From an uncultured Elusimicrobia bacterium (GTDB lineage Bacteria > Elusimicrobiota > Elusimicrobia > UBA1565), in contig CAYHRV010000017.1 in the NCBI GenBank assembly GCA_964359165.1, positions 1-24,809 on the forward strand: a stretch of 24,809 nucleotides of DNA. Reading direction: 5' to 3'. Shown here piece after piece: positions 323-24,703 of this stretch; the first letter of the stretch is position 1, and each line of letters starts with the position of its first letter. A model generated the notes under the pieces. It was not told the DNA's origin. It ran no database searches and saw only the letters and a list, made by a program, of their open reading frames with translations. A program made the position numbers and the translations under genes.

Positions 323-1900
323 TCAGCTGGCGAGGATCTTCTCGGCCTCTTCCTTGTCGAGGTCCATCATCATCCGGATGCCGCTGATCTTGGAGGCTTC
401 CGGGGTGAGGGCGGCGATGTCATCGCGCTTGAAATGCTCCAGGGAGAACTTGCGCGCGCCGCACATCATCTGGCGCAAGCCCTGGGAGATCCTCTCGAGG
501 TAGGTGTAGACGCCCAGGGCCCCGGGCGGCACCTTCTCGAAGTCCTTACCCAGCTTCTCCTTGAGCTCCGAGGCGCAAACGAAGACCTCCTCGACCGAAT
601 TGCCGAAGCGCCCCACGAACACCGGCATGTCGCCGGAAGCGATGCGCTTGCCGATGGTCTTGGCCACCATGGCCGCGGTCAGCGGCGCGCGCGCCATCTC
701 GATGGCCTTGAAGTACGGGGCTCCCATGGCTAACCCTTTGAACATCTGGTCCTCGAAGGCGAAGCCCCCCGCGATGGCGATGTGCGGGACGAACTCGCCG
801 CGCTTGGCGAGCTTGTCGGCGTACTGATAGAGCAGGGAGAAGAGCTCCACCGGCGGCACGCCCCACTCGTTCATCATGCGCCAGGGGCTCATGCCCGTCC
901 CGCCTCCGGCGGCGTCGACGGTGAGCAGGTCGATCTTCCCCTTGGAGGAGAACTTGATGGCGCGCGCCAGGTCCGCCGGGCGATAGGCCCCGGTCTTGAG
1001 GAAGACGTGCTTGGCCCCGCAGTCGCGCAGTTCCTTGACGCGCTTGAGGAAGCCTTCCTCGCTGACCATCCCGACCCGGGAGTGCCTCTCGAACTCCTTG
1101 AAGGAGCCGCGGTCGAAGGCCTTGATGGTGCTCGGGGAGGCCGGGTCGGGGAGCACGATATAGCCGCGGTCCTTGAGTATCTGGGCCTTCTTGAGGCTCC
1201 CGATCTTCACCTCGCCGCCGATGTTCTTGGCACCCTGCCCCCACTTGAGCTCCACGGTGTCCACGCCCAGCTTGCTCACGGCGTACTCCTGCACGCCCAG
1301 GCGGCCGTCCTCCACGTTGGCCTGCACGACCACGGTCCCGTAGCCGTCCTGCCAGTCCTTGAAGAGCTTGACCCGGCGCGCGAGCTCCGGGGAGGAGACG
1401 ACGCGGCCCTTGACGATCTCGGCGTCCATGTCCATGCCGCAGACGTTCTCGCCGATGGTCAGGATGACGCCGGAGAGAGCCGCGCCCACCGCCAGCCCCT
1501 CCCAGTTCTTGGCCGCGATGTCGGTGGATCCCAGGCCGCCGAAGACCACGGGCAGGCGCACCTTCACCCCGGGGTTGTGCCCCAGGCGGGTCTCCAGCCG
1601 GACGTTGGGGAAGAGGGCCTTGTCGCTGTCGGCCTCGATGCCGTGCGCGCCCACGGCCCCGCCCATGATCTGGAAATGGGAGAGGTCCACGGGGTAGGAT
1701 TTCTCGGAGGCCGTGGTGATGATGCCGAAGGGTTGCGGGTAGATGACCTCGCTGCCGCGCAGGGCGGATTTGCCCACCTCGCACATGCCCACGCACCCGT
1801 CCACGCAGGTCACGCAGAGCCCGCTGTTGGGGGTGACGGACCCCACGGTCCGGTTCTTGGTCAAAGTCGCCGCCGTCGCGTTGTATTTGCTGTAGGCCAT
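323..1900 (-). CDS. FMN/Fe-S flavoprotein of the glutamate synthase large-subunit domain-2 (GltB FMN-binding) family
   Basis: 525 aa ORF. N-terminal Cys cluster CVTCVDGCVGMC. The central and C-terminal region (GGTGMSP, AIAGGF, Gly-rich stretches) matches the TIM-barrel FMN domain of glutamate synthase-related proteins. It is last in the co-directional array after the NuoEF-like genes. Confidence 0.75.
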   Translation of the reverse strand: MAYSKYNATAATLTKNRTVGSVTPNSGLCVTCVDGCVGMCEVGKSALRGSEVIYPQPFGIITTASEKSYPVDLSHFQIMGGAVGAHGIEADSDKALFPNVRLETRLGHNPGVKVRLPVVFGGLGSTDIAAKNWEGLAVGAALSGVILTIGENVCGMDMDAEIVKGRVVSSPELARRVKLFKDWQDGYGTVVVQANVEDGRLGVQEYAVSKLGVDTVELKWGQGAKNIGGEVKIGSLKKAQILKDRGYIVLPDPASPSTIKAFDRGSFKEFERHSRVGMVSEEGFLKRVKELRDCGAKHVFLKTGAYRPADLARAIKFSSKGKIDLLTVDAAGGGTGMSPWRMMNEWGVPPVELFSLLYQYADKLAKRGEFVPHIAIAGGFAFEDQMFKGLAMGAPYFKAIEMARAPLTAAMVAKTIGKRIASGDMPVFVGRFGNSVEEVFVCASELKEKLGKDFEKVPPGALGVYTYLERISQGLRQMMCGARKFSLEHFKRDDIAALTPEASKISGIRMMMDLDKEEAEKILAS

Positions 1901-1904
1901 GTCA

Positions 1905-1927
1905 GCATTCCCCCCGCGGGGGAATGC
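1905..1927 (-). promoter_or_regulatory. GC-clamped stem-loop (10-bp stem, 3-nt loop) ending 5 nt upstream of the GltB-like start codon
   Basis: Plus strand reads GCATTCCCCC-CGC-GGGGGAATGC, which can pair perfectly. It lies between the stop of the upstream gene (1997) and the ATG at 1900. Confidence 0.5.
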
Positions 1928-1996
1928 TCGTGGAGGGGCGTTGTTGCCGTTTCATAAGCCCCTTCCTTATTATTCCCTTTCCGCGATGTATTTTCT

Positions 1997-2668
1997 TCAT
2001 TTTCGTATGCAGGTTCCGCAACTGCCGGTCGTCCCCATGTAGCACATCAAGTCATCGTGCGGTTCCACGCAGGTCGGCTGGACGCTCATGCAGGAGCCGC
2101 AGATGTCCGTCGGCGGCTTGGGGCCGTGGCAGCGCAGGGTGCAGGCCGGGCAGACATACATGCAGCCTCCGCAGCGCCGGCAGCTCTGCGAGGGCTTGTC
2201 GAAAGGGGTGGTGATGCGCCGCTTGGCGCCGCGGCCCACGAAGTCGATGGCCCCGGCCATCATCTGCTCCTTGCACATGCGCACGCAGAGCCCGCAGAGC
2301 ACGCACTCCTCGTCGCGCGGAGGGAAGCGCTGGCGGCCGACGCCCATGAGCGCGGCCAGGTCCTGCAGGACCTTGGAGTTGGGGGCCGTGGAGAGCATGA
2401 GCTCCACGAGCATGCGCCGCGTCTTGAGCACCCGGCGCGAGCCCGTGCGCACGAAGAGCCCTTCCTCCGCCGGATAAGTGCAGGAGCTCACCAGGCGGCC
2501 CCGCTCCCCCTTGCCGATCTCGACTACGCAGAGGCGGCAGCCCCCGTAGGGCGTGAGGCCGTCCATGTGGCAGAGCGTGGGGATCTCCAGCCCCAGGAAG
2601 CGCGCGGCCTCCAGGACCGTGGTCCCGGGCTCCACCGACACATCCAACCCGTCTATTCGCAGATTCAT
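1997..2668 (-). CDS. 2Fe-2S plus two 4Fe-4S iron-sulfur protein resembling the N-terminal domains of NuoG/HndD/FdsA
   Basis: 223 aa. Plant-type 2Fe-2S pattern C-x10-C-x2-C-x13-C near the N-terminus, followed by CVLCGLCVRMC and CRRCGGCMYVCP 4Fe-4S motifs. No catalytic (molybdopterin or H-cluster) domain follows. Confidence 0.75.
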   Translation of the reverse strand: MNLRIDGLDVSVEPGTTVLEAARFLGLEIPTLCHMDGLTPYGGCRLCVVEIGKGERGRLVSSCTYPAEEGLFVRTGSRRVLKTRRMLVELMLSTAPNSKVLQDLAALMGVGRQRFPPRDEECVLCGLCVRMCKEQMMAGAIDFVGRGAKRRITTPFDKPSQSCRRCGGCMYVCPACTLRCHGPKPPTDICGSCMSVQPTCVEPHDDLMCYMGTTGSCGTCIRK

Positions 2669-2673
2669 ATCTC

Positions 2674-2698
2674 AGCGGCCCCCTCGCAGGGGGCTGCT
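2674..2698 (-). promoter_or_regulatory. Stem-loop (10 bp with one G-U pair, 5-nt loop) ending 6 nt upstream of the start codon at 2668
   Basis: Plus strand AGCGGCCCCC-TCGCA-GGGGGCTGCT, in the intercistronic gap between the NuoF-like stop and the NuoG-like start. Confidence 0.45.
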
Positions 2699-2739
2699 TC
2701 CTTCGGGGTGCGGGATCCGTTTCATCAGACGGTCCGTTT

Positions 2740-4656
2740 TCATATGACAAAAACCGCCTTGCTCTTGCAGACCTCCGCGCAGATGCCGCAGCGAATGCAA
2801 AGGGAATCGTCGACGCGGTGCGGCTTCTTCAACTCGCCGGAGATCGCCTTCTGCGGGCACTCCTTCTTGCAGAGCAGACAGCCGACGCAATGCTCCTCAT
2901 CGATGACGTAGCGGATGAGCGCCTTGCAGACCCCGGCGGTGCAGCGCTTGTCGCGGATGTGCGTCTCGTATTCCTTGCGGAAGTAGCGCAATGTGCTCAG
3001 CACCGGGTTGGCCGCGGTCTGTCCCAAGCCGCAGAGCGAGCTGTCCTTGACCACGGCCCCCAACTCCTCCAAGAGGGCGAGGTCCCCCTCCTTGCCCTTG
3101 CCCTCGCAGATGCGGTCGACGATCTCCCACATGCGCTGGGTGCCCTCGCGGCAGGGAAGGCATTTCCCGCAGGACTCCTCGCGCAGGAAGTTGAGGAAAT
3201 ACCGGGAGATGTCCACCATGCAGGTGGAATGGTCCATCACGATCATGCCGCCGGACCCCATGATGGAGCCGGCCTTGGCCAGGCTCTCGTAGTCCACCGG
3301 CAGGTCGAGGAGCTGCCGGGGCAGACAGCCTCCGCTGGGGCCGCCGGTCTGCACGGCCTTGAATTCCCCTTCGCCCCGGATGCCGCCGCCCACGCCGAAG
3401 ATGATGTCGCGCAGCGTGGTCCCTACGGGGACCTCGACGAGCCCGGTATTGACGACTTTCCCGACCAGCGAGAATATCTTGGTTCCGCCGCTCTCGGGCG
3501 TCCCGATCCGGCAAAACCAATGGCCGCCGCGCCGGATGATGAGGGGGATGTTGGCCCAGGTCTCCACGTTGTTGATGTTGGTGGGCTTGCCCCATAGTCC
3601 CCGCACCGCGGGGAAAGGCGGGCGCTGGCGCGGTTCGCCCCTGCGGCCTTCCAGCGAGGCGATGAGAGCCGTCTCCTCGCCGCACACGAAGGCGCCGGCT
3701 CCGCGCTCGATGTGGATGTCGAAATCGAACTTGGAGCCGAGGATGCCCTTGCCCAGCAGGCCGCGCTCGCGGGCCTGTTCCACAGCCAGGCGCACGTGCT
3801 TGACGGCGAGGGGATACTCGTAGCGCACATAGACGAAGCCCTCGGAGGCCCCGATGGCGTACGCGCCGATGATCATGCCCTCCAGAACAGAATGGGGGTT
3901 TCCCTCCAGCACGCTTCGGTCCATGTACGCGCCGGGGTCGCCCTCGTCCGCGTTGCAGACCACGTATTTGACCTCGCTCTTGGCCCTGCGGCAGAACTCC
4001 CATTTAAAGCCCGTCGGAAATCCCGCGCCGCCCCGTCCCCGGAGCTTGGCTTTCTTGACCTCACCGATGACGGCGTCCGGGGTCAGCTCATGCAGGGCCT
4101 TGGCCAAGGCCTGGTACCCACCCAGGGCGAGGTAACCCTCGATGTCGGAGGGGTCGACGAGGTCGTTGGCGCGCGTGATCTGCCTGCGCTGGAGCTTATA
4201 GAAAGGGATGTCGCTGGCGAAACGGACCGTCTGCCCGGTGTTGGGGTCCTTATAGAGGAGTTCCTCGATGACGTTGTTGCGCAGGATGGTCTCCGAGAGT
4301 ATCTCCTTGGCGTTCTCGGGCTTGACTCTCTGATACAGGATGCCGAGAGGGTCGACCTGGACGATGGGCTCTATGTCGCAGAAACCCTGGCAGCCCGTGG
4401 ACTGGATTAGGACGCGGCCCTCGAGTCCGAGGGCGGCGGCCTGCTCCTTGAGCGCGGAGGCGAGCTCCATGGCCCCTTTGGCCAAGCCGCAGGTGCCGCA
4501 CGAGACGGTCAGGGTGAAAGCGTAAGCTTCGCGCTCGCGCAGGATGCGCTCGCGCTCGCGGGAAAGCGCCTGCGGCCCGGAGAGCCTCTTCTCGGGTTTC
4601 TCCCCTCCGGGTCGGCGGCCGGCGCGGGCCTCAGTGCGCTTTAAAGAAAGTGCCAT
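2740..4656 (-). CDS. NuoF/HndC/HydB-type NAD(P)H-binding flavoprotein (51 kDa family) with an N-terminal thioredoxin-like 2Fe-2S domain and a C-terminal 2x[4Fe-4S] ferredoxin domain
   Basis: GGAGFPTGFKWEF NADH/FMN motifs, SCGKCLPCREG 4Fe-4S motif, and C-terminal CVGCLLCKKECP / CIRCGICAEVC. The track ORF extends to 4899, but the arginine-rich N-terminal extension is implausible. The in-frame ATG at 4656..4654 gives a NuoE-like N-domain (STGCQGFCDIEP) with the expected spacing, and overlaps the upstream gene by 26 nt. Confidence 0.85.
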   Translation of the reverse strand: MALSLKRTEARAGRRPGGEKPEKRLSGPQALSRERERILREREAYAFTLTVSCGTCGLAKGAMELASALKEQAAALGLEGRVLIQSTGCQGFCDIEPIVQVDPLGILYQRVKPENAKEILSETILRNNVIEELLYKDPNTGQTVRFASDIPFYKLQRRQITRANDLVDPSDIEGYLALGGYQALAKALHELTPDAVIGEVKKAKLRGRGGAGFPTGFKWEFCRRAKSEVKYVVCNADEGDPGAYMDRSVLEGNPHSVLEGMIIGAYAIGASEGFVYVRYEYPLAVKHVRLAVEQARERGLLGKGILGSKFDFDIHIERGAGAFVCGEETALIASLEGRRGEPRQRPPFPAVRGLWGKPTNINNVETWANIPLIIRRGGHWFCRIGTPESGGTKIFSLVGKVVNTGLVEVPVGTTLRDIIFGVGGGIRGEGEFKAVQTGGPSGGCLPRQLLDLPVDYESLAKAGSIMGSGGMIVMDHSTCMVDISRYFLNFLREESCGKCLPCREGTQRMWEIVDRICEGKGKEGDLALLEELGAVVKDSSLCGLGQTAANPVLSTLRYFRKEYETHIRDKRCTAGVCKALIRYVIDEEHCVGCLLCKKECPQKAISGELKKPHRVDDSLCIRCGICAEVCKSKAVFVI

Positions 4657-5038
4657 ACTTTTCGTAGAAGGTCTTGAGCTCCAGGTCCGGGTCCTCGAAT
4701 TCGATGAGGTGCTTCTTGCACCCCCGGCGTGAGCAGATCTGTATCGTCCCCCCCTCCGCCAAGGAGAACGCCACCATGGGCGCCTGGCAGATCTCGCAGT
4801 TCCTGGAGCTTTTGAGCCCTTCCTTGCAGTGGGGACAGAACAGGTCGCCGATCTTCCCGTCGGGGCAGACGATGTCCATCTCGACCTTGTAGCTCCCATA
4901 GAGCGAGCTCATGTGGAGCTTCCCCTTCTTCTTGCCGTAGCGGATCTCCACGGTGATGGCGGGGTGGTTGTCGATCTTGCGTTTGGAGTCCATCAAGGAC
5001 TCCGCGCACAGCGGGCACTTGAGTTCGACTTCGATCAT
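4631..5038 (-). CDS. Small Cys-rich (zinc-ribbon/rubredoxin-like) protein of unknown function
   Basis: 135 aa, 9 Cys arranged as CPLC..CPDG..CPHC..CEIC..CSRRGC. Lys-rich and noticeably lower GC than its neighbours. Its ATG overlaps the NuoE-like stop (ATGA), and its 3' end overlaps the NuoF-like start. Confidence 0.55.
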   Translation of the reverse strand: MIEVELKCPLCAESLMDSKRKIDNHPAITVEIRYGKKKGKLHMSSLYGSYKVEMDIVCPDGKIGDLFCPHCKEGLKSSRNCEICQAPMVAFSLAEGGTIQICSRRGCKKHLIEFEDPDLELKTFYEKYGTFFKAH

Positions 5039-5529
5039 TTCTTCGGCGCCTCCGATCTCTTGGCGAGCTTGCGCGCTCCCTGCGGGGTGACCTGGCCGTG
5101 ATATTTCCCGTCGGTGACGAGGACGGGGCCGATGGCGCAGCAGCCCAGGCAGTTGACGGTCTCCAGGGAGTATTCCCCGTCCCCCGTGGTCTCGCCGGGC
5201 CGGACGCCGAGCATTCGGCTGAGCTCGTCGACGACGCGGGTCACGCCGCGCACGTGGCAGGCCGTGCCGATGCAGGCGGTCAGAGTGTGGCGGCCCGGCT
5301 TGGTCAGACGGAACATCTTGTAGAAAGTGGCCACGCCATAGATCTCGGTGATCGGCGCGTCGAGGAACTGGGCCACCTGCCGCAGAGCCTCCTCCGGAAG
5401 ATAACCGAGCTCCTCCTGGATGTCCTGCAGGATGGAGATGAGCTCCCGCGAAAGGCCTTTATAGCGCCCCAGGATCGAATCGAGCTGTTTATCTCCCGAT
5501 TTAAACGGCTTTTTCAAGACAGTTTTCAT
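5035..5529 (-). CDS. NuoE/HoxE/HndA-type thioredoxin-like 2Fe-2S subunit (24 kDa family)
   Basis: 164 aa. CIGTACHVRG....CLGCCAIGP four-Cys pattern and overall NuoE-like sequence. Confidence 0.85.
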   Translation of the reverse strand: MKTVLKKPFKSGDKQLDSILGRYKGLSRELISILQDIQEELGYLPEEALRQVAQFLDAPITEIYGVATFYKMFRLTKPGRHTLTACIGTACHVRGVTRVVDELSRMLGVRPGETTGDGEYSLETVNCLGCCAIGPVLVTDGKYHGQVTPQGARKLAKRSEAPKK

Positions 5530-5587
5530 CGAACCATTAAGAAAGCAACAAAACCGCCAAACCCTCTCAGCAACGAGGTCTCTCCAT

Positions 5588-6943
5588 TCAGGCGATTATT
5601 TCTATTGGATGGCCCTTTCTTGAGACCTTTCCGGCGGACCTGGCCGCGAGGAGCGGATCATCAGACTCCATCCCCTCGCGCAGTTCCCAAACGGTAAGCA
5701 TCGGAAGGATGCGAGTGAAGAGCAGAAAGACCAAGAGGAATCCAGCGGCCCACCCCAGGGTGACGGACCATTCCACCCAGGAGGGGCTGTAATGGCCGGG
5801 CCCCCAGGGAAGGAAGGGCCTCGCGCCCGAAGGCACGATGATGGTGTATCTCTCCAACCACATCCCGAGATTCACGGAAAGACCGGCCCATAACAATCGG
5901 CTCTCCAGGGTGCCGATCCGGAAGGCCAGCAAAGGGAATGGGATGGCGAGGCAGAAGATGAGCATGCCCCAGAACCCCGGACCGAATTCTCCGCTCAGCT
6001 TGGCCTGGAACACTTCCATCTCCGCGGCATGCTGTCCATAGAAAGTGGTCAGGAGCTCCACGAAAGTGAAATATCCCCAGAAACAGCAGACCGCCAGGAA
6101 GAATTTTCGCAGGGCCTCGAATTCCGCCTCTCGGATGGCCCATTGGAAGCCGAACGATTTCCGCAGAAGCACCGCGATGGCGGCGAGTCCTCCGAGTCCC
6201 TGGAACGCGGCCCCGATGACGAAATAGGGGCCGATGGCGGCGGAATGCCAGCCGGGCTTGGTCGTCATGCCGAAGATGAATCCGACGTTGGTATGCACCG
6301 AGATGACGAGCGCGAGCAGAACGATGGAAAGGATGCTCATGAGCCGGTGATGGAGCCTCTCCTGGGCTTGGGTTCCCGTCCAGTCCAGGGCCGCCCAGCG
6401 GTAGAATCCACGCTGCCAGGCCGGGACGCCCTGGAGTCGGTCCCGGCAGAGAGCGAAGTCCGGGACGAGCGCGAGGTAGAAGTACAAACAGGACATGAGC
6501 AGATAGGTGGAGATGCACAGCACGTCCCATAGGATCGGCGAGGTCAGATGCGGATAGAGGATGACGTTCAGAAAACGGTCCGGCCGGCCCAGGTCGATGA
6601 TGACGCTGCTAGCCGCGAAGAATAGGCTGGCGATGGTGATGGTCTCCGCTATGCGGGTGAAAGGCCGCCTCCAGGCCGCGTCGGTGATGCGCAGGATGGC
6701 GGAGATGAGCGTGCCCGCGTGCGAGACCCCGATAAAGAAGACGAAGTTGACGATGTAGACTCCCCAGAACACGGGGACGCCGAGCCCGGTGACTTTCAGG
6801 CCGTTGAACACCTGCCAGAGCCAGGCGAGCGCCCCCCAGAGGAACAGGCCGCCCAAGACGGCGGCCGCGATAAGGAAACCCCCTCCCGGCTTGCTCGTCA
6901 GCGGCCGGAGCACCTCCGTCTCCATCTCGTGGATATCCATCAA
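5588..6943 (-). CDS. NrfD/PsrC-family polytopic membrane subunit (quinone-interacting anchor of CISM-type complexes)
   Basis: 451 aa, many hydrophobic helices, family-typical length and composition. The ATGA overlap with the preceding Fe-S subunit stop mirrors psrABC, qrcABCD and act operon layouts. Confidence 0.8.
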   Translation of the reverse strand: MMDIHEMETEVLRPLTSKPGGGFLIAAAVLGGLFLWGALAWLWQVFNGLKVTGLGVPVFWGVYIVNFVFFIGVSHAGTLISAILRITDAAWRRPFTRIAETITIASLFFAASSVIIDLGRPDRFLNVILYPHLTSPILWDVLCISTYLLMSCLYFYLALVPDFALCRDRLQGVPAWQRGFYRWAALDWTGTQAQERLHHRLMSILSIVLLALVISVHTNVGFIFGMTTKPGWHSAAIGPYFVIGAAFQGLGGLAAIAVLLRKSFGFQWAIREAEFEALRKFFLAVCCFWGYFTFVELLTTFYGQHAAEMEVFQAKLSGEFGPGFWGMLIFCLAIPFPLLAFRIGTLESRLLWAGLSVNLGMWLERYTIIVPSGARPFLPWGPGHYSPSWVEWSVTLGWAAGFLLVFLLFTRILPMLTVWELREGMESDDPLLAARSAGKVSRKGHPIEIIA

Positions 6944-7734
6944 CCCTCCCGCAGATAGATCACCTTCGGCTTGGTGCCGAGGTCTTCGAGCATTCGATAC
7001 GCCCGGTGGTCGAGCGAGGCGCGGGACACCTCGCTGCGCGGGTCATGGAGGTCCCCGAAGAGTATCGCCTGGGCCGGACAGGCCTCGACGCAGGCCGGCA
7101 CATAGTCCCCCGGCCGAAGGTCCCGGCCTTCGGAGCGGGTCTTGTCCCGAGCCCTCTGAAGCCGATGGTGGCAGAAGAGGCATTTCTCCACCACCCCTTT
7201 TTCCCGGAGCGAGACGTCCGGATTGGGCGCGAAACCGCCTTCTCCCGGCCATTGGGGGTCTCCCCAATTGAAGAACTTGCAGGTGTAGGGGCAGGCGTTG
7301 ACGCAATAACGGCAGCCGATACATCGGTCGTAGACCTGGCCTACGATGCCCTCCGGGCTGAGAAAGGTCGCCGAGGTGGGACACACCCGTGTGCAGGGCG
7401 GATTGTCGCACTGCTGGCAGGGCATGGGGATGAGACTGCGCCGCACCCGGTCGCCCTCCACCTCGGTGGTAGGGAGTATCTTCAGCCAGCGTATGACCCT
7501 GCCCAGCGCCGCCTCCCGAGGCCCCCCCGGCATCTGGTTGTTCTCGACCGCGCAGCTCACCATGCAGGCCCCGCACGCGGTGCACTTGTCGAGATCGATG
7601 ACCATGCCCCATCTATGGCCGGCCGCCTGGGCTCCATGTCCCGCGGGCGCTGAGTCGGCCGCGGAGAACAGGGAGGAGAAGGCCCGCAGCACCGTTCCCA
7701 AGAAGTTCCTGCGGCCAGCGGGTTCAGGCCGCAT
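6940..7734 (-). CDS. Tat-exported 4x[4Fe-4S] ferredoxin-type subunit (PsrB/NrfC/QrcC/ActB2-like)
   Basis: Twin-arginine motif GRRNFLGTVL. Multiple Fe-S motifs: CTACGACMVSC, CQQCDNPPCTRVCP, CIGCRYCVNACP, CLFCHHR...C. Confidence 0.85.
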   Translation of the reverse strand: MRPEPAGRRNFLGTVLRAFSSLFSAADSAPAGHGAQAAGHRWGMVIDLDKCTACGACMVSCAVENNQMPGGPREAALGRVIRWLKILPTTEVEGDRVRRSLIPMPCQQCDNPPCTRVCPTSATFLSPEGIVGQVYDRCIGCRYCVNACPYTCKFFNWGDPQWPGEGGFAPNPDVSLREKGVVEKCLFCHHRLQRARDKTRSEGRDLRPGDYVPACVEACPAQAILFGDLHDPRSEVSRASLDHRAYRMLEDLGTKPKVIYLREG

Positions 7735-9850
7735 ACACCCTTACCTTGGCCCGCCAAAGAGGCCGACCCGAAGGCTCGAAATTCCGTTTCACGAGCGCGG
7801 CGGGGTTGACGCCCACTCCCAGCGCGTAGCGCCCCATTGCCGTATGCCCCAGGCCCAGAGGCATGGCCACGGTGCTGGGATCGATGCCCGGGAAATACCG
7901 CGCCTTGGCCCGGACTCTTCCCGCGGGGGATTCCACCCAGACCTCCTTTCGGTCCTCGATGCCCAGTCTCTTGGCGGTGTCCGGATGTATCTCCAGCCAG
8001 CTTCCCCATTCCTCCCCCACGTGGATACCCGCCACGCTGTGCAGGTAGGGCAGGTGAGCCCCTTCTCCGAAGGAGAAGGCCAAGGGAACGAAGACTTGGA
8101 GGTCGAGCATATCATCGGAGGGCTCCGCGCGGACCGCGCGGTTGTTGAGCGCTTCGGCCGCGAAATGAAGGGCCGGGAAGGCGGCGCTGACGGTCGCGGC
8201 GGGCACGGCGGCGTAGCGCCGCCAGCCCCCTTCCCTCATCGCGGCCTCGGTCCCGGAACGGCCCGCCGCCTCCCCCAACGCCTCCACGAAATCCTTCCAG
8301 GGGAAAGCCTCGGCGATGCGCCGGTCCCCGAGGGAACGCGCCAGGCGCAGGATGAGGTCCCCGTGATCGCAGGTGTCGTGCATGGGAGCGATCACGGGCG
8401 GCGCGAAGCTCACCACCCCGTCGCCGTCGATGGTCCGGGTGAAGCCGTATTGCCACGCCTCCAGCCCGTGGTGTGGAGGGAGCACCAGGTCCGCCAGTTC
8501 CGAGGTCTCATCCAAAAAAGAAGAGAAGCTCACGATGAATGGGAGCGCACGCAGCGCCTGCCTCCACCGTTCCGGCTCCGGACTCAGGAAAACGGGGTTG
8601 ACCCGCTCGAGCCATAGAAGATCCAAACCGGAGCCCGAACCCAGGGATTCCGGCAGGCGGTGCGCGGAGTTTTCAAGGCGGGACTTAGGAGACGGCAAGC
8701 TCCCGCCGGGCAGCGACAGTTGGTGCCTCTCGGCCTCGCTCCACAGAACGCCTTGCCGCACTCCCACCGAGCCCAGCAGGACGTTGAGGCCATGGACGGC
8801 GACTTGGGTGAAAACCTCCCCGCGATTCGTGATCGCCAGGGCGGGGCGGATGTCGGCCATCTCCCGCGCGAGCTCGGCGATCTTGGCCCGCTCCACTCCC
8901 GTCTGCGCGGACACACTGTCGGGACCGTACTCCCGCAGCACCAGCTCGCGGTATTCCCGGAAGCCCCGAGTCCATCGCTTGACGAACGCCTCGTCATAGA
9001 GGCCTTCCGAAATCAGGATATGCGCCACCCCCAGAGCGAGCACGCCCTCGGTCCCGGGCCGGACCCGGACCCACTCATCGGCCTTGGAGGCCGTCACGGA
9101 TAGGCGCGGCTCGATCTGGACCATGCGGGTCCTGCGCTCCGCGCGCCCCCGCCGCAGGCGGCCGTAGGCCCGCTGGGCCTCGATGGGCGAAGGGAAGGCC
9201 TGAAGCCAGTCCCACCCGAAGGAGACGATGTGGTTGGCGTTGGTCAGGTCGTAGAAGAGCCCTTCCTCGGAGCCGTGCATGAGGCGAAAAGCGTCCGAAG
9301 GCCCCTCGCCCAGAGGCCAGTCCCATTCCCAATAATACGGGGTCCCGAGCGCCCGGGCGAAACGTTTCTGAAGTTCATGGCGGATGTCGCGGATAGGCGC
9401 CGCGAGCATGGCGAGGCGCTCGGGTTTATCGGCATCGAGCACTCCCGAGAGCCGCGTTCGCAGGATTCGCTCCGCTTCGTTCCAGGAGACCCTCTCCCAT
9501 CGCCCTTCCCCCCTCTCGCCCTTTCTCAGGATGGGGAAACGCAGGCGATCGGGATGATAGAGGTCCTGCAGGATGGCGCCGCCCTTGGGGCAGAGGGCTC
9601 CCCCGCTGACCGGATGGCCGGCCTTGCCGGAAACCCCCACCGGCTTGCCTTCCACCACTCGGATGTCCAGCATACAGAGGGCCGGACACAACTTGCAGAC
9701 CGCGGGGCGGCGGACATCGCTCTCCAAGAGCGCCGGCGGCCTTTCCCCCGGCGTAAGAACCCCCGCCCGCAGGGCCTGCGGCAGGGCGCTCGCCGCGCCC
9801 AGCAGCCCTCCCCACTTCAGGAAATTCCGTCTGGATATCTCGGGGTTCAT
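7724..9850 (-). CDS. Tat-exported molybdopterin-oxidoreductase-family large subunit (Psr/Phs/Qrc/ActB1-like)
   Basis: Start taken at ATG 9850 (MNPEISRRNFLKWGG, Tat motif), 5 nt after the cytochrome stop. FS0-type motif C-x2-C-x3-C...C-P-K-G is present. Length ~708 aa. No Cys was seen in the region where Cys/SeCys molybdenum ligands usually sit, so cofactor status is uncertain. Confidence 0.8.
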   Translation of the reverse strand: MNPEISRRNFLKWGGLLGAASALPQALRAGVLTPGERPPALLESDVRRPAVCKLCPALCMLDIRVVEGKPVGVSGKAGHPVSGGALCPKGGAILQDLYHPDRLRFPILRKGERGEGRWERVSWNEAERILRTRLSGVLDADKPERLAMLAAPIRDIRHELQKRFARALGTPYYWEWDWPLGEGPSDAFRLMHGSEEGLFYDLTNANHIVSFGWDWLQAFPSPIEAQRAYGRLRRGRAERRTRMVQIEPRLSVTASKADEWVRVRPGTEGVLALGVAHILISEGLYDEAFVKRWTRGFREYRELVLREYGPDSVSAQTGVERAKIAELAREMADIRPALAITNRGEVFTQVAVHGLNVLLGSVGVRQGVLWSEAERHQLSLPGGSLPSPKSRLENSAHRLPESLGSGSGLDLLWLERVNPVFLSPEPERWRQALRALPFIVSFSSFLDETSELADLVLPPHHGLEAWQYGFTRTIDGDGVVSFAPPVIAPMHDTCDHGDLILRLARSLGDRRIAEAFPWKDFVEALGEAAGRSGTEAAMREGGWRRYAAVPAATVSAAFPALHFAAEALNNRAVRAEPSDDMLDLQVFVPLAFSFGEGAHLPYLHSVAGIHVGEEWGSWLEIHPDTAKRLGIEDRKEVWVESPAGRVRAKARYFPGIDPSTVAMPLGLGHTAMGRYALGVGVNPAALVKRNFEPSGRPLWRAKVRVYAA

Positions 9851-9855
9851 GTCGG

Positions 9856-10362
9856 CTATCGGTGGCAGGCCAGGCAATCGGTGGTGACCCCCTCCTTCTT
9901 ATGGCAGTCCACGCAGGCGGACATGCTCAAGGGCGCCAGCCGGCGCGTCAGCGCGCGCTCCGTCGAAGCCACGTCCCCATGGCAGGCCTTGCAGTCGAGC
10001 TTTCCGTCCCCCGCGTGCCGCTTATGCGAGAAGAGGACATGGCTCGGCGTCCGATAGATCCGCCGCCAGGGGATCTCCTTGCGCTCGCGCAGGAACTCCG
10101 CCAAGTCCTCCGGGGTCCTCGGCGCGGCCTTGCCCGGGTCATGGCAGAGGGCGCAGATGCGCATCTCCGGGATGCCGGCGCGCGCGTCCTCCTTGGCTCC
10201 CGCATGGCACCCGGCGCATTCGATTCCGAAGTCCGCGTGCTTCTTATGGTTGAAGGAAATGGGCTGGGGAGTGCCCCAGGAGCTCCAAGCCCAGAAAAGA
10301 GTCCCGGCCGCGACCAGGGCGACGAAGAGCAGGGACCCCGCGGCCGACAATATCTCCCTCAT
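9856..10362 (-). CDS. Membrane-anchored multiheme cytochrome c (five CxxCH motifs)
   Basis: 168 aa. N-terminal TM helix LLFVALVAAGTLFWAW, then CAGCH, CALCH, CKACH, CVDCH, CLACH. Its position directly upstream of the large subunit resembles QrcA/ActA. Confidence 0.85.
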   Translation of the reverse strand: MREILSAAGSLLFVALVAAGTLFWAWSSWGTPQPISFNHKKHADFGIECAGCHAGAKEDARAGIPEMRICALCHDPGKAAPRTPEDLAEFLRERKEIPWRRIYRTPSHVLFSHKRHAGDGKLDCKACHGDVASTERALTRRLAPLSMSACVDCHKKEGVTTDCLACHR

Positions 10363-10391
10363 CGCGCCTCTTCCCCCGGACTCGGGCCCTC

Positions 10392-11276
10392 TTACCCCCC
10401 CGCCTCCGTTTTAGGCGGGCGGCCGAACTCCTTGGCCAGCGCCGTCAGCCCGGACATGGCTCCCAAGCCCATGGTCTCCACGGCGCTGGAGGGGACGACC
10501 ACGATGGTGGAATTCTGCCGCATGCCTTCCAAGAGTATGTTCATGGCCCGAAGGTGCAGGGCCACGGGGTTCTCGGCGTAGGACTGGGAGGCCTGCTTGA
10601 ACTTGCCCGCGATCTGGAGCTCCGAGTCTCCGAGGATGACGCGCGCCTGGCGTTCGCGCTCCGCCTGGGCCTGCATGGACATCGCGTCCTGCAGCGCTTC
10701 GGGGATCTTGACGTCGCGGATCTCCACCGACAGGGCCTGAATGCCCCAAGCCGCGGTCCTTTGCTCGATCATCTGCCGGAGCTTGACGTCTATCTCCTGG
10801 CGGCCGATGAGCATCTTGGCCAGGTCCGTCTCTCCGATCGCGTCGCGCAGAGCGGTCTGGGAGGCCCAGGCGATGGCCTGGCGGTAGTCCTCCACCTCCA
10901 GGGCCGCTTTGACGGGGTCTATGACGCGCCAAAACAGCACGGCGTCCACGTCCACCGGCACGCTGTCCTTGGTGAGGGTGCGCTCCGCGGCGAAAGGCGT
11001 GGTGACCGTCCTCATGTCGATCCAATAGGGGATGGTGTCCAGGCCGGGGGCGACGCCGAATATCCCGGGGCCGCGCAATCCGTGGAATTTGCCGAGCCTC
11101 AGGATGACGGCCTTCTGCCATTGCCGGGCCACGCGCAAGCCCAGGAGCACGAACGCCCCCGCGGCCAAGCCCACAAGAGCCGGCAGGGGGTGTCCCGTGC
11201 GGGCGCTCAAAGCCCCGCCCAGCCCCGCCAGCAATGCGAACAGCGTCAACGTCAATGGATGTATGCCCATCGTCAT
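10392..11276 (-). CDS. SPFH/band-7 (stomatin/prohibitin-like) membrane protein
   Basis: 294 aa. N-terminal TM segments followed by a typical SPFH domain (VILRLGKF...RTLTKD...DAVLFWRV...EIRDVKIP...). A TAGGAGG RBS overlaps the upstream stop. Confidence 0.85.
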   Translation of the reverse strand: MTMGIHPLTLTLFALLAGLGGALSARTGHPLPALVGLAAGAFVLLGLRVARQWQKAVILRLGKFHGLRGPGIFGVAPGLDTIPYWIDMRTVTTPFAAERTLTKDSVPVDVDAVLFWRVIDPVKAALEVEDYRQAIAWASQTALRDAIGETDLAKMLIGRQEIDVKLRQMIEQRTAAWGIQALSVEIRDVKIPEALQDAMSMQAQAERERQARVILGDSELQIAGKFKQASQSYAENPVALHLRAMNILLEGMRQNSTIVVVPSSAVETMGLGAMSGLTALAKEFGRPPKTEAGG

Positions 11277-11282
11277 CGCCTC

Positions 11283-11813
11283 CTAATCCGTCGTTCCCTC
11301 GTCCGCAGCGCCCTCCCCGCTCTTTCCGGGCGGCCCCTTGATGCTGAAGAGATATTTCGCCAAGTCCTCCGTCTCCTCGGCGGTCAGTATCTTCCGCCAG
11401 GACGGCATGTCCAGGGGTGGTTCGGGCTCGGCCTCGTCGAGTTTGGCCGGGTGCCCCCCCTTAAGAAGCTTGCCCTTTAGGTCGGCGCGGGTGAAGGCAT
11501 CGGCCAAGTCCTCGAGGTTAGGGACCATCCCCTCGGGGTCGGCGTTCGGGTTCTTGACCCCGCCCCGGCCCTGGGGGCCGTGGCAGACCCCGCAGCGCAA
11601 GGCCCGGTAGATGCGGCGTCCCCGGAGGATGTCCTTATCCCACGCGCTTTCGGACCCGGCCGGTTCCGCCGCGAATGCCTGGGTCGTGGGCGTTATGGCC
11701 CACCGGGGGCTCCATAACCGCGCCCGCCAGCCCAGGAAGCCGTAGAACCCGAAGATGCCGGCCCAGGCGCCCGCGACCAAAACGATCAGCCCGAGCGCTC
11801 CCGCGTCTTTCAT
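11283..11813 (-). CDS. Membrane-anchored monoheme class-I c-type cytochrome
   Basis: 176 aa. N-terminal hydrophobic anchor, single CGVCHG heme motif, downstream Met (DMPSW) as a candidate axial ligand. Confidence 0.75.
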   Translation of the reverse strand: MKDAGALGLIVLVAGAWAGIFGFYGFLGWRARLWSPRWAITPTTQAFAAEPAGSESAWDKDILRGRRIYRALRCGVCHGPQGRGGVKNPNADPEGMVPNLEDLADAFTRADLKGKLLKGGHPAKLDEAEPEPPLDMPSWRKILTAEETEDLAKYLFSIKGPPGKSGEGAADEGTTD

Positions 11814-11825
11814 CGCCGTCGGGGC

Positions 11826-12263
11826 CTACTTGCCCCCCGCTTCCTTTTCCTTGAGTTTCCTATCGATCAGCTCCTTCTTGCGGACCGAGGAATCGTAGAT
11901 CAGGAAGTCGATGATCTTCGTGGCGCTTTTCGCGTTGAGGCCGGAACGCTTCTTTTTCTGCATCTTCTTGACATAAGGGTCCCACTCCTCGGGCAAGGCA
12001 TAGGGCGAATTGACGGCTCGCGCCAAGGTGTGGCATTTGGAGCACCGCACGGCGAAAGTCTTGTAATTTTCCTGCTGTTCCTGGGGATATTTTGAGACGT
12101 CTATCTCAATGGGCCCCTTGTCCCAGGGGAACTCCTTTTCGCCGGCTTTCGCCGCCTCGTCCTTGGCGGTCTCTTTCTTGGCCTCGTTCTGAGCGATGGC
12201 GGCTGAAACAGCGAGTCCGAACACAAAGCACAGGCTCAAGAAGATTTCCCTATTCCCCCTCAT
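11826..12263 (-). CDS. Secreted monoheme c-type cytochrome (Lys-rich C-terminus)
   Basis: The track ORF extends to 12452, but the internal ATG at 12263 is preceded by a strong AAAGGAGG RBS and starts a signal peptide MRGNREIFLSLCFVFGLAVSAAIA. Single CSKCH motif. Confidence 0.7.
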   Translation of the reverse strand: MRGNREIFLSLCFVFGLAVSAAIAQNEAKKETAKDEAAKAGEKEFPWDKGPIEIDVSKYPQEQQENYKTFAVRCSKCHTLARAVNSPYALPEEWDPYVKKMQKKKRSGLNAKSATKIIDFLIYDSSVRKKELIDRKLKEKEAGGK

Positions 12264-12464
12264 ACAAAGCCTCCTTTGCGGCAAATCGGTGCGGCCGGCC
12301 CCGAACACGGAACGGGCTTCCCCGATGTCTCGGGATCGGGGCGCGCGCTCACGGAGGCCGGCAAGGGCTCTTGGGGGGCCCCGCCTGTTTCCACGCGCGC
12401 CGCGCCGGCCGGACCGCCGCGGGCGGACGCATTCTCGCCCGCGGCGGTCCAAGAGTCCGACGGC

Positions 12465-13742
12465 CTAGAAGCCCAACTCCACCTGCGCCGTCCAGCGGGT
12501 GTCCTTCGTCTGCTTGACGCCCGCCTTATTGTCCGAGAGTTCATCGTAATACTCCACGAAGGTCCGGACGTTCTCCATGGGGTAATAAGCCAAGCTGGCG
12601 ACGAGGTGGTTCTGCTTCCTGTCGAGGAACTTATCCTTGACGCTGTCGAAACGGACCAGGGGGACGATCCACGGGCGCTCATTCTTCTTGAAGGTATAGA
12701 ACGCCTCGCCGTATCCTCCCGTATTGTCCGCTTTCAGCACCCCGGTCGCGTCCGCCTCTTTCTTGGCGCTCATGAGCGCCGCTCGGATGCCGAAATCCTT
12801 GAACTCCGCCAGGGCGTCCACGGCGAAGGCCTGGATCTTGTTGATCGGCGTTCCCGTCTCGTTCTTGCTCGTCAGGTCATCCTTCCCATACTGGAAGTAG
12901 CCGCCCAAGGCCAGCCCCTTAAGCGTGTCGGCCACCAGCCTGACATTGTAGTTCGGCGGGCCGTAGCCCTCCTGGGCCTTGGTGCCGGCCGTCGCGGCGG
13001 CCGCTCCCCCTCCGACTCCGAACGCGTAGCCCAGGGCCCCTACCCCCTCCCGACTCAACTCACCCCGCAAGGCCAGGTACTGCTGGTCCAGCATGAGCAG
13101 GGTTCGAGCGTCGCTGGCCCGGCGCGTCCAGCCGCTGTGGGCAAGCGTTTGATACGGGTCGACGCGGTGCAGGAAGTCGCCGAAACCGGCTATCACATTG
13201 AAATACGGATTCGGGTGGTAGCCCAAGGAGAGGTCCGCGACCTCCATCTCGAACCCCGTCCCGGCGTCGTCCTCCGCTTCGATCTCCGTGAAGTAGGAGA
13301 AGTTCTTGGCCACGCTTCCGTCGGCCACGAACAGCTCCAGCTCATGAAGGGCCCTGTTCTGGATCTTCCGGGGAGTCCCGCTTGATTTTTGCTTGTCGAT
13401 CGGCCGCGCCTTGACCAGCCCCCCCCAGGGGAAATCTTTGGGGAGCATCATGTCGCTGGCCTCGATCCGGACTCCTTCTTCTTTCGCTCTCTCCCGGACA
13501 AAGCCGTTGTTCTTGAACTCACGGCCGTAGTCGTTGAGGAGCGGATAGGCAGCGTGGCACTGGGAACAGCTGATGCCGTATTTCCTGGAGAAGGCCGGCA
13601 CCGCCTGCGCCTGCGCCACCGCGCCCGGCCGCACCGGACACAAGCCCAATATCTTCTGGCTCAACGGCGGCAGCACCCAAGCCGCCGCCAGAACCGCCAG
13701 CGCGAATACCGCAGTGAACCGGCCCCTTCTTTGACTCATCAT
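12465..13742 (-). CDS. Cyc2-like fused cytochrome-porin: signal peptide, a single CxxCH heme motif, then an outer-membrane beta-barrel
   Basis: Start chosen at the ATGATG at 13742, with GGAGGG directly upstream. Signal peptide with AQAQA cleavage-type site. CSQCH lies within ~20 residues of the mature N-terminus. The next ~380 aa have alternating Gly/aromatic-rich beta-strand character and a C-terminal Phe (VELGF), typical of OM beta-barrels. Size (~425 aa) matches the Cyc2 family. Confidence 0.65.
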   Translation of the reverse strand: MMSQRRGRFTAVFALAVLAAAWVLPPLSQKILGLCPVRPGAVAQAQAVPAFSRKYGISCSQCHAAYPLLNDYGREFKNNGFVRERAKEEGVRIEASDMMLPKDFPWGGLVKARPIDKQKSSGTPRKIQNRALHELELFVADGSVAKNFSYFTEIEAEDDAGTGFEMEVADLSLGYHPNPYFNVIAGFGDFLHRVDPYQTLAHSGWTRRASDARTLLMLDQQYLALRGELSREGVGALGYAFGVGGGAAAATAGTKAQEGYGPPNYNVRLVADTLKGLALGGYFQYGKDDLTSKNETGTPINKIQAFAVDALAEFKDFGIRAALMSAKKEADATGVLKADNTGGYGEAFYTFKKNERPWIVPLVRFDSVKDKFLDRKQNHLVASLAYYPMENVRTFVEYYDELSDNKAGVKQTKDTRWTAQVELGF

Positions 13743-13764
13743 TCCCTCCATGGAACGGCTGACC

Positions 13765-13779
13765 GCACCCCGCGGGTGC
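13765..13779 (-). promoter_or_regulatory. Short GC hairpin (GCACCC-CGC-GGGTGC) in the predicted 5' UTR of the Cyc2-like gene
   Basis: Perfect 6-bp stem with 3-nt loop, between the candidate sigma-54 promoter and the RBS. Shares the CCC-GCG-GGG core with the other hairpins. Confidence 0.4.
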
Positions 13780-13800
13780 GAAAACATCCGGGAATACATG

Positions 13801-13818
13801 CGCAACGCCTTGGCCGGG
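13801..13818 (-). promoter_or_regulatory. Candidate sigma-54 (-24/-12) promoter for the Cyc2-like operon
   Basis: Minus strand reads cccGGCCAaggcgTTGCg. GG and GC have the canonical spacing of TGGCAC-N5-TTGCW. It lies ~60 nt upstream of the ATG at 13742, and a sigma-54 activator gene is adjacent. Confidence 0.45.
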
Positions 13819-13904
13819 AAGACCGCGCATTAAATAAGGATTAAACGCGGATGAAGCCCGCCGTTTTCAACCGGCTTGGAAACGGATTCAGGTCTATTGG
13901 AAGA

Positions 13905-23607: not shown

Positions 23608-24638
23608 TTCAGACCTCCCAAAAGCTCCAGGAGCACGGCCTTGGCCGTATGCAGCCTGTTCTCCGCTTCGTCGAGGACCACCGACCCGGGGCCGTCCAAG
23701 ACCGCGTCGTCGATTTCGAGGTTGCGGCGCACGGGCAGGCAGTGCATGAGCAGGGCACCCTCGGTGCGGCGCATCTTCTCGGCGCTCACGCGCCAGCGGG
23801 CGCGGAAGGCGGCGTCTTGGGGAGGAAGCGTGCCGTAGCTCGAGAGCGCTCCCCAGGATTTGGCGTAGACCACATGGGCTCCCTCGTAGGCCTTTTCCGG
23901 ATCGTCGGTGACCTGGACCTTCGTGCCGCGCCGGGCGCTCTCCTCGTTGAGCCAGGCCATGACTTCCCCGTCGAGGTCATAGCCCTCGGGCCGGCAGAGG
24001 ACCAGGTCCATGCCGCCGAGCACCGCGGCTTGCGCCGCGGAATGCGGGACGGCCGAGGGCAGATGCTTGATATGCGGGGCCCAGGTCAGCAGGAATTTCT
24101 TGCGGCGGGGATCCATGCGCTCCTGGATGGTCATGAGGTCGGCCAATCCCTGGCAGGGATGGCCCAGCGAGGATTCCATGTTGATGACCGGCACCGTGGA
24201 GTAGCGCAGGAAAGGCGATAGCTGGGGCTCCTTTCTATCCTCCTCCCAGGTCTTCCCCGAGGGGAAGGCGCGCAGGGCCACCGCGTCGCAATAGCGACCG
24301 AGCACCGGGACCGCGTCCTTGAGATGCTCGGTGGCGGAGCCGTCCATGACCGCGCCGTCGCGGCTCTCCATGTTCCAAGTCCCCTGGCCGAAGAACAGCG
24401 TCACCGGATGGGCCCCCAGCGAGGCGGCCGCGACCTCGAAGGAGACCTGGGTGCGCAGGGAGGGGTTCATGAAGCAGAAGGCGAGGGACTTTCCCCGGAG
24501 CGGGAGGTCCTTGGGCGGCGCGGCCTTGAGTTTTCGGGCGAGGGCGACGAGCTTCTCCACGCCTTCCCGGCCCCAGTCCCGCAGATCGGCGAAATGCCGG
24601 AGTCCGGTCGATTTTCCAGAAATTACCGAGGTGGTCAT
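23604..24638 (-). CDS. Ornithine/acetylornithine carbamoyltransferase-family enzyme with atypical motifs (possible N-acyl-ornithine transcarbamylase, ArgF'-like)
   Basis: 344 aa from the ATG at 24638 (AGGAG RBS). HPCQ and HCLP motifs are present. The carbamoyl-phosphate motif reads SLRTQ instead of STRTR, and no DxxxSMG motif was found. It is co-operonic with an M20 deacetylase. Confidence 0.7.
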   Translation of the reverse strand: MTTSVISGKSTGLRHFADLRDWGREGVEKLVALARKLKAAPPKDLPLRGKSLAFCFMNPSLRTQVSFEVAAASLGAHPVTLFFGQGTWNMESRDGAVMDGSATEHLKDAVPVLGRYCDAVALRAFPSGKTWEEDRKEPQLSPFLRYSTVPVINMESSLGHPCQGLADLMTIQERMDPRRKKFLLTWAPHIKHLPSAVPHSAAQAAVLGGMDLVLCRPEGYDLDGEVMAWLNEESARRGTKVQVTDDPEKAYEGAHVVYAKSWGALSSYGTLPPQDAAFRARWRVSAEKMRRTEGALLMHCLPVRRNLEIDDAVLDGPGSVVLDEAENRLHTAKAVLLELLGGLK

Positions 24639-24703
24639 GATTTTTCTCCTAGAATCTCCAAGATCAAGCAACTGCGGGACTTAGCCCCCTCAGAACGCAC
24701 TCG

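Follow-up and report, generated by a model that had tools for sequence, protein, structure and literature searches.

We analysed a 24,809-nt stretch of DNA from an uncultured Elusimicrobia bacterium (contig CAYHRV010000017.1 of assembly GCA_964359165.1; hereafter the window) and focused on a small cysteine-rich gene, here called gene X, that lies between a NuoE-like and a NuoF-like gene. X is a true gene under purifying selection, and its family is undescribed, with no counterpart in Pfam, NCBIfam or the PDB. Gene order, translational coupling and fusion repeatedly and specifically connect it to the NuoE-like subunits of one cluster type, in which NuoE, NuoF and HoxU are encoded together with a glutamate-synthase-like (GltS-like) protein. 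Our favoured reading, to which we give a probability of roughly 0.6, is that X is an optional accessory subunit of the NuoE-like (BfuC-like) subunit with two Cys4 zinc sites and a non-catalytic role.

Gene X and its linkage to NuoE and NuoF

Gene X is an open reading frame (ORF) on the minus strand that starts with ATG and encodes 135 amino acids (15.3 kDa, isoelectric point 8.0). Its start codon (5038-5036) shares bases with the TGA of the NuoE-like gene in the sequence ATGA, and a GGAGG (5053-5049) precedes the ATG by a 10-nt spacer. At the other end, the gene overlaps the start of the NuoF-like gene by 26 nt, because position 4656 is the single possible NuoF start: the NuoF-like frame has one in-frame ATG/GTG/TTG 5' of its conserved part. 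The same geometry at the X/NuoF junction was found in a relative that is 96% identical (L009). An original prediction, made from the letters of the window, had described both overlaps, a lysine-rich protein and a GC content below that of the flanking genes, and these features are all present. Lysine makes up 11.8% of the residues, and the GC fraction is 0.578 in X, 0.628 in NuoE, 0.651 in NuoF and 0.655 in the whole window. At third codon positions, the GC fraction (GC3) of X is 0.882, which lies within the range of the neighbouring genes (0.83-0.95). The low overall GC of X is therefore an effect of its amino-acid composition and not a mark of foreign DNA. A scan for promoters and terminators around the cluster gave no signal above chance.

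Conservation of X reaches well beyond this genome. A word-indexed search returned 172 homologues, nearly all of 131-135 amino acids with 46-94% identity; Elusimicrobia, Zixibacteria and related uncultured phyla account for most of them. When one genome per species was scanned, relatives turned up in 225 species genomes, and a hidden Markov model (HMM) search of 1.8 billion representatives gave 372 representative clusters at 50% identity. The ratio of nonsynonymous to synonymous substitutions (dN/dS) against L009 is 0.10 for X and 0.12 for NuoE.

The position of the gene is also conserved. The original prediction had proposed looking for homologues between nuoE and nuoF-like genes of other genomes, and at least seven phyla proved to have them at this position (Elusimicrobia, Zixibacteria, Ignavibacteria, Edwardsbacteria, Cloacimonadota, Armatimonadota and Gemmatimonadota), where the gene order is NuoE-X-NuoF-HoxU-GltS. 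One bin labelled Euryarchaeota has this five-gene order too. Every sufficiently long NuoE-X-NuoF locus carries the HoxU-like and GltS-like genes, with GltS always after HoxU. Across the NuoE-X-NuoF loci compared, the X-bearing NuoEF systems are exclusively of this GltS type.

We profiled X domain architectures in the 150 best of the 372 representative clusters. In 19 of these, a NuoE domain (PF01257) is followed by X in one polypeptide, and in one, X precedes a NuoF-type N-terminal 2Fe-2S domain. Two X matches per protein occur in 16, mostly as X-X tandems of 245-297 amino acids along with a few short fragments, and a single X domain in 114, some with an extra region such as a CBS pair. The NuoE-X fusions are 31-45% identical to each other and continuous; thus, they are not assembly artefacts. 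Where their genomic context is available, they sit in NuoF::GltD-HoxU-GltS clusters, in one case behind an NtrBC-like sigma-54 two-component pair. Because of these fusions, which link the two proteins in the manner of a Rosetta stone, and because of the translational coupling, we interpret X as physically associated with NuoE/NuoF.

To profile how often the cluster carries X, metagenome contigs were searched with the GltS-like protein, which yielded 51 loci with NuoE and NuoF upstream. X is present in nine of them, seven times in one frame with NuoE and twice as a separate gene. In 39, NuoE is adjacent to NuoF (gap of at most 207 nt) and the HMM detected no X within 10 kb on either side, so the expectation that the two genes normally adjoin holds for most clusters of this type. 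The other three carry an HndB-like thioredoxin-like [2Fe-2S] protein at this position (L108 1256-1705, L125 5557-6129 and L144 5570-5953). From this split, the NuoE/NuoF junction is a slot that takes alternative accessory modules. The idea that X is obligatory for the enzyme was rejected, as most clusters of the GltS type lack it. The HndB-like protein in the slot duplicates the N-terminal domain of NuoF.

A neighbour-joining tree separated three groups, namely the fused forms, a multi-phylum group of separate X genes between NuoE and NuoF that holds the protein of the window, and a clade of stand-alone genes. A single relocation event would be compatible with this tree. The metagenome-assembled genome JACQYT contains an X of the stand-alone type and one of the cluster type (L059 and L083); the single X of L083 sits upstream of NuoE. 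Two loci (L015 6663-7055 and L030 6837-7235) have two X genes, the canonical one between NuoE and NuoF and a divergent one upstream of NuoE. The divergent copy of L015 keeps all cysteines and has a degenerate YGSY motif.

Cysteine knuckles and predicted fold of X

X has nine cysteines, as originally counted, at positions 8, 11, 58, 68, 71, 81, 84, 102 and 107. Their arrangement differs from the four CxxC-type pairs plus CSRRGC that had been described: there are three CxxC pairs (8/11, 68/71 and 81/84), one Cx4C pair, which is the CSRRGC itself (102/107), and a lone Cys58. In the family alignment, the eight paired cysteines are invariant or nearly so and Cys58 is not conserved. The eight are kept in separate, NuoE-fused, tandem (in both halves) and CBS-fused forms. 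Further family motifs are LSSLYGSY, CSRRGCKKHLIEFE and a C-terminal FY. Residues C102, R104, G106, C107, K109 and H110 around the fourth knuckle are invariant in the free-standing forms. The C-terminal helix with the FY motif is found in all free-standing X and is missing from the NuoE-X fusions, which end directly after knuckle 4. This helix is probably a docking element that replaces the covalent tether in free-standing X, and we treat it as a candidate for that role.

Knuckles 2 and 3 have the spacing C-x2-C-x9-C-x2-C, which is of the zinc-ribbon type. With eight cysteines in four knuckles, X has the ligands for the two Cys4 sites of a double zinc ribbon, and the four knuckles most likely form two such metal sites. 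For their pairing, we infer that knuckles 2 and 3 would make a classical zinc ribbon and that knuckles 1 and 4 would close the N-terminal and C-terminal parts of the protein. The bound metal is most likely structural Zn2+. Two points favour zinc: forms of X in non-redox contexts retain these cysteines, and the profile similarity of X is to zinc ribbons only.

The AlphaFold2 (AF2) model of X, built from a 52-sequence alignment, has a mean predicted local distance difference test (pLDDT) score of 90.3 and a predicted template modelling (pTM) score of 0.81. The model has nine short beta-strands and, at the C-terminus, a single helix (residues 117-131). A Foldseek search with the model, a check that the original prediction had recommended, gave no PDB match below an E-value of 0.2. 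Scans of X against Pfam and NCBIfam gave no model above threshold, with sub-threshold matches to zinc-ribbon and methionyl-tRNA synthetase (MetRS) knuckle models only, and a profile search against PDB sequences returned only spurious C2H2 and ankyrin matches. As modelled, X is an all-beta domain with four cysteine knuckles and a new fold. In the literature, the Bfu classification paper included, we found no description of the X protein or of a complex of NuoEF with a glutamate-synthase-like protein.

The similarities to known families are confined to the knuckles. The double zinc ribbon family DZR (PF12773) matches the X of the window with 14.4 bits, below its cut-off of 27.3, whereas several homologues exceed the thresholds, with P0138 at 35.5 bits and P0121 at 31.1 bits on DZR. 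Knuckles 2 and 3 resemble those of DZR and of Zn_ribbon_6 (YfgJ, PF07191), and about 25-40 of the 135 residues are covered. The N-terminal beta-meander, LSSLYGSY, CSRRGCKKH and the C-terminal helix are specific to X. The best Pfam match of X is PF09334 (17 bits against a cut-off of 20.1, profile positions 106-173); some homologues are above the cut-off, P0140 with 25.5 bits among them. The zinc knuckles in the connective peptide of MetRS (about positions 106-227 of PF09334) are nested and have the same C-x2-C-x9-C-x2-C spacing as X. Unlike MetRS, X has neither the class I Rossmann catalytic domain with its HIGH/KMSKS motifs nor the anticodon-binding domain, and no MetRS appeared in the PDB sequence search. 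An identity as MetRS was rejected for a protein of 135 amino acids in which only the zinc-knuckle region matches, below threshold. In public records, many X homologues are labelled hypothetical, and others, P0010, P0013, P0020, P0041 and P0100 among them, bear the name 'methionyl-tRNA synthetase' or that of a 'class I tRNA ligase family protein'. We consider these tRNA-ligase names to be over-annotation because they reflect a weak similarity to the zinc-knuckle insert of MetRS.

Proposed role of X and alternative explanations

It is very probable that X is an accessory subunit or domain of the NuoE/NuoF module. The original prediction of a zinc-ribbon-type accessory protein stands in this sense, as X is a conserved small protein with cysteine knuckles that is linked to NuoE/NuoF by the recurring slot and by fusions. 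X is also conserved outside this genome and tied to NuoEF, so neither of the outcomes that had been set against the prediction in advance applies. That the metal is structural zinc and that X has a non-redox role in docking or pairing is a more tentative proposal, with chances a little short of even.

In solved Bfu enzymes, the thioredoxin-like domain of the NuoE-like subunit swings from the FMN site to the ferredoxin-like domain of BfuB and back. Ferredoxin in the archaeal NfnABC structure lies between this BfuB domain and the C-terminal domain of BfuC (PMC12018979). We propose that the synthesis of X would be translationally coupled to that of NuoE and NuoF. In other lineages, X is carried on the C-terminus of the thioredoxin-like domain of NuoE via a linker of about 15-20 residues that is predicted to be flexible, and in free-standing X the C-terminal amphipathic helix may take the place of this tether for docking. 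X would then be a neighbour of the mobile domain of NuoE and of the C-terminal, ferredoxin-like domain of NuoF, in the region where ferredoxin binds in Bfu enzymes. Its role there is predicted to be non-catalytic: it may provide a docking surface, gate or modulate the swinging domain, or support oligomerisation by pairing protomers.

Known systems offer partial parallels for such a role. BfuB of HydABC and NfnABC has Zn sites (B2 and B5) that are Cys-ligated and redox-inert and lie at hinges or linkers by mobile domains of the BfuBC core (PMC12018979). These sites are comparable to X in that X is tethered to a mobile BfuC-type domain in the fusions. They are, however, inside BfuB, whereas X is a separate domain or subunit of 135 amino acids with two predicted sites, and none of the solved Bfu structures contains it. 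In function, the nearest analogue is HndB, a thioredoxin-like [2Fe-2S] protein of Hnd/HydABC-type systems that is encoded between the NuoE-like hndA and the NuoF-like hndC, in the same slot as X, and is optional as X is. A review that was examined does not mention HndB. X differs from it in its all-beta fold with one helix, its four knuckles and its metal, which is probably mononuclear rather than a 2Fe-2S cluster. With this AF2 fold and no PF01257 match, X was rejected as a member of the HndB/PF01257 family, and the genuine HndB-like proteins that occupy the slot in other clusters are plainly distinct from it. The N-module of complex I has small, Cys-rich, Zn-binding and non-catalytic subunits of the NDUFS6 (zf-CHCC) type. 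They share the concept with X and nothing in sequence, profile or structure, and X would be part of a soluble Bfu-like enzyme.

Several tandem and paired forms suggest that the X domain works as a pair, because the X-X tandems and the pairs of X genes around NuoE each combine a canonical with a divergent copy. Of three X-X tandems examined, two lie 2 nt upstream of genes for NfnA-like and NfnB/GltD-like proteins. At L096 (7705-11307) and L181 (1068-2772), a tandem of about 290 amino acids with a divergent second half is followed by an NfnA/PyrK-like protein (DHODB_Fe-S_bind) and a 615-amino-acid NfnB/GltD-like protein.

Other observations weigh against the proposed role of X as a NuoE accessory. 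X is dispensable for the cluster type, as the 39 X-free loci show. In a large, contiguous clade of Elusimicrobiales, X is encoded on its own, flanked by a TolC-MFP-MacB block and an unknown-Dus-MutS block (L003 and about 50 further loci). No functional link was found from the neighbours of this clade, where a membrane-anchored protein of about 250 amino acids without a family match lies downstream, followed by Dus and MutS. In the X-CBS form (265 amino acids; L089-L091 6001-6798), X has a C-terminal CBS pair and is encoded monocistronically amid divergent, unrelated genes. One X-X protein occurs in an unrelated glycosidase/peptidase context. Because of these stand-alone, CBS-fused and tandem forms in unrelated contexts, the domain is not strictly tied to NuoE. 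The AF2 model of one natural fusion (P0179) also gave no confident NuoE-X interface. From a shallow alignment of 12 sequences, both domains were predicted with pLDDT above 90, linker residues 173-178 were below 50, and pTM was 0.50. This outcome pictures a flexible tether and, given the shallow alignment, counts little for or against an interface.

The best surviving alternative, which we consider unlikely, is that X is a redox-active carrier. Its Cys4 sites would then hold Fe, as in rubredoxin, or an Fe-S centre, and would offer an extra point of electron entry or exit at the NuoE/NuoF core, for example as a substitute or adaptor for soluble ferredoxin or rubredoxin. The four CxxC/Cx4C knuckles, the first of them CPxCG-type, would suit such a carrier, and two [2Fe-2S] thioredoxin-like domains flank the gene or are fused to it. 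The X-X tandems directly upstream of NfnA/NfnB-like flavo-Fe-S genes, the redox-active HndB-like protein that the slot can hold and a flexible tether compatible with a swinging carrier domain point the same way. Bfu enzymes have sites at which Zn and Fe-S are interchangeable, and one of the proposed Bfu classes is of the rubrerythrin type (PMC12018979 and PMC9304861). However, X matches no rubredoxin or ferredoxin family and no redox protein by structure. For rubredoxin itself (PF00301), there was no profile or fold match in Pfam, NCBIfam or Foldseek, which leaves the rubredoxin-like protein of the original prediction without direct support. Rubredoxin-type potentials are too high for a low-potential branch. 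The eight cysteines are kept as well in X-CBS and in stand-alone X without redox neighbours, which a fold-stabilising Zn explains better, and most GltS-type clusters operate without X.

We regard it as quite improbable that X is a small, independent zinc-ribbon protein of general function, such as that of a regulator, nucleic-acid binder or protein adaptor, which different operons have recruited and whose position in the slot reflects co-regulation rather than complex membership. The synteny of the stand-alone Elusimicrobiales clade, conserved and unrelated to NuoEF, is what such a protein would show. The fusion to a regulatory CBS pair, the tandem in the glycosidase/peptidase context and the optional presence of X in GltS-type clusters also agree with autonomy, as do the conserved basic SRRGCKKH patch and the isoelectric point of about 8. 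Against this, NuoE-X fusions in 19 of the 150 best clusters, together with the one X-NuoF fusion, are hard to explain without physical association. The gene is translationally coupled on both sides, X among NuoEF systems is specific to the GltS-type cluster, and no DNA-binding or RNA-binding family was matched in Pfam or NCBIfam.

Still less probable is a maturation or assembly factor that stays outside the mature enzyme, for instance one that delivers metal or Fe-S clusters to NuoE/NuoF. Small Cys-rich proteins encoded within redox operons are often maturation factors, X is optional, and some homologues have a faint HypA-type zinc-ribbon similarity. These HypA matches are far below threshold and cover the generic zinc-ribbon part only. 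A permanent fusion to NuoE, found in many lineages, would be unusual for a transient chaperone, and the assembly subunit of the original prediction is therefore less likely than a permanent subunit.

The idea that X is a recent insertion, as had also been suggested, or a spurious ORF of a GC-rich genome carries next to no weight: the overall GC is below that of the flanking genes and chance overlapping ORFs are many in this window, but it is refuted because GC3 (0.88) is like that of the neighbours, dN/dS is 0.10, and the arrangement is old, with hundreds of homologues, a gene order common to several phyla and a confident AF2 model.

Returning to X as an accessory subunit of NuoE, we also consider a bolder version that we find doubtful, with the odds clearly against it. 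Here, X would found a new metal-binding fold and serve on the swinging [2Fe-2S] domain of NuoE (BfuC) as a mobile module for docking or pairing. Its host would be an unrecognised and extremely conserved Bfu-type enzyme that couples NuoEF-HoxU to a glutamate-synthase-like FMN subunit, possibly an NADH-coupled and ferredoxin-coupled bifurcating enzyme that aminates 2-oxoglutarate. If true, X would adjust how ferredoxin binds, control the motion of the BfuC domain or connect protomers.

The Bfu/HydABC-type mechanism depends on the swinging NuoE-like [2Fe-2S] domain and the neighbouring ferredoxin site, and these enzymes are intensely studied structurally. X, which is conserved, fused or separate, and optional, could serve as a natural perturbation of this gating or docking step. 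It also marks a widespread class of NuoEF-HoxU systems with a GltS-like FMN protein; this class does not appear in the published Bfu classification and may connect NADH and ferredoxin pools to nitrogen assimilation.

Host cluster and neighbouring genes

The genes NuoE/HoxE-like, X, NuoF-like, HoxU-like and GltS-like follow each other on the same strand of the window. Their coordinates and those of the features of X are listed below.

Table 1. Genes of the host cluster and features of gene X in the window.
Feature	Positions	Strand	Basis
Gene X, undescribed double zinc-ribbon-like family	4631..5038	-	ORF, homologues, dN/dS, AF2
Translational coupling signals (GGAGG, spacer, ATGA)	5035..5053	-	Read from sequence
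Overlap of 26 nt, X end and NuoF-like start	4631..4656	-	Sole usable start at 4656; same in relative L009
NuoE/HoxE/BfuC-like protein, thioredoxin-like [2Fe-2S], 164 aa	5035..5529	-	PF01257, E 2.9e-45
NuoF/BfuB-like protein, 638 aa	2740..4656	-	Pfam and NCBIfam domain matches
HoxU/NuoG-N-terminal-like (BfuA-like) Fe-S subunit, 223 aa	1997..2668	-	Profile matches
Glutamate-synthase FMN-domain-like protein (GltS-like), 525 aa	323..1900	-	PF01645, E 1.9e-13
Knuckle 1, C8-P-L-C11, CPxCG-type in family	5006..5017	-	At least 90% conserved; all architectures
Motif (L/M)SSLYGSY; Y47, G48 and S49 invariant	4889..4912	-	Alignment A1
Knuckle 2, C68-P-H-C71	4826..4837	-	Invariant in alignments A1 and A3
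Knuckle 3, C81-E-I-C84	4787..4798	-	Invariant; sub-threshold DZR, Zn_ribbon_6 and MetRS-knuckle matches over this stretch
Knuckle 4 and basic motif, C102-SRRG-C107-KKHLIEFE	4694..4735	-	Alignments
C-terminal amphipathic helix, residues 117-131, with FY motif	4646..4690	-	AF2 and cross-architecture alignment

Domain analysis of the NuoF-like protein revealed a 2Fe-2S_thioredx domain (residues 50-122), Complex1_51K, NADH_4Fe-4S and a C-terminal Fer4 domain (residues 583-634) for two [4Fe-4S] clusters. The host cluster has the architectural features of a Bfu enzyme: a BfuC-like subunit, a BfuB-like subunit with both terminal domains and a BfuA-like subunit that would feed a module for a third substrate. 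It is best read as a soluble NuoE-NuoF-HoxU oxidoreductase that resembles Bfu/HydABC enzymes and has an output module like the FMN domain of glutamate synthase; a bifurcating activity is predicted at most. The glutamate-synthase type is not among the Bfu classes listed (PMC9304861).

The GltS-like protein is presumably the catalytic module of the cluster. Its PF01645 match covers profile positions 185-308 of 369 only, and the amidotransferase, central and GXGXG domains of GltB were not found in the 525-amino-acid protein, for which PF01645 is the only Pfam match. No NCBIfam family covers it, and the search of PDB sequences gave no relative. It carries an invariant N-terminal C29xxC32xxxC36xxxC40 motif and is 66-80% identical across phyla, with a mean column identity of 81%. 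At least 586 metagenome matches were found, and the host cluster is widespread. In some loci (L006 and L095), glutamate dehydrogenase or NtrBC-like regulators adjoin the cluster.

In many phyla, the C-terminus of NuoF is a GltD/NfnB-like module (Fer4_20 and Pyr_redox_2; about 1056-1084 amino acids in total), for example at L006 8465-11635 and L095 8147-11401. The NuoF of the window has the 2x[4Fe-4S] domain at the place where these carry the GltD-like module. Both variants occur with and without X. The NuoF::GltD variant is present in seven of the nine clusters with X and in 17 of the 39 clusters in which NuoE adjoins NuoF, a difference that is not significant. At its N-terminus (residues ~1-45), the NuoF-like protein of the window has a basic, Arg/Glu-rich extension of about 20-45 residues ahead of the thioredoxin-like domain. 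Relatives, in which homology begins at residues 19-49, show poor or no alignment to the extension, whose coding region overlaps the end of X.

The L009 contig, the closest relative and also from uncultured Elusimicrobia, is colinear with positions 494-5559 of the window and resumes at 17042-19354. The intervening segment of about 11.5 kb (5560-17041) is absent from it, as an indel or an island. Genes in this segment encode NrfD, a 4Fe-4S protein, a molybdopterin oxidoreductase with a twin-arginine translocation (TAT) signal, cytochrome c7, an SPFH protein, cytochrome c, two unknowns, and a sigma-54 response regulator with a histidine kinase. Nitrogen-related neighbours of the cluster in the window are the NtrC-like sigma-54 regulator with its histidine kinase (13905-16861), a Lyase_1 ORF (20214-22463) and an ornithine/aspartate carbamoyltransferase (23604-24671). 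The Lyase_1 domain, of the argininosuccinate/fumarate lyase type, is confined to residues 345-600 of the 749-amino-acid ORF.

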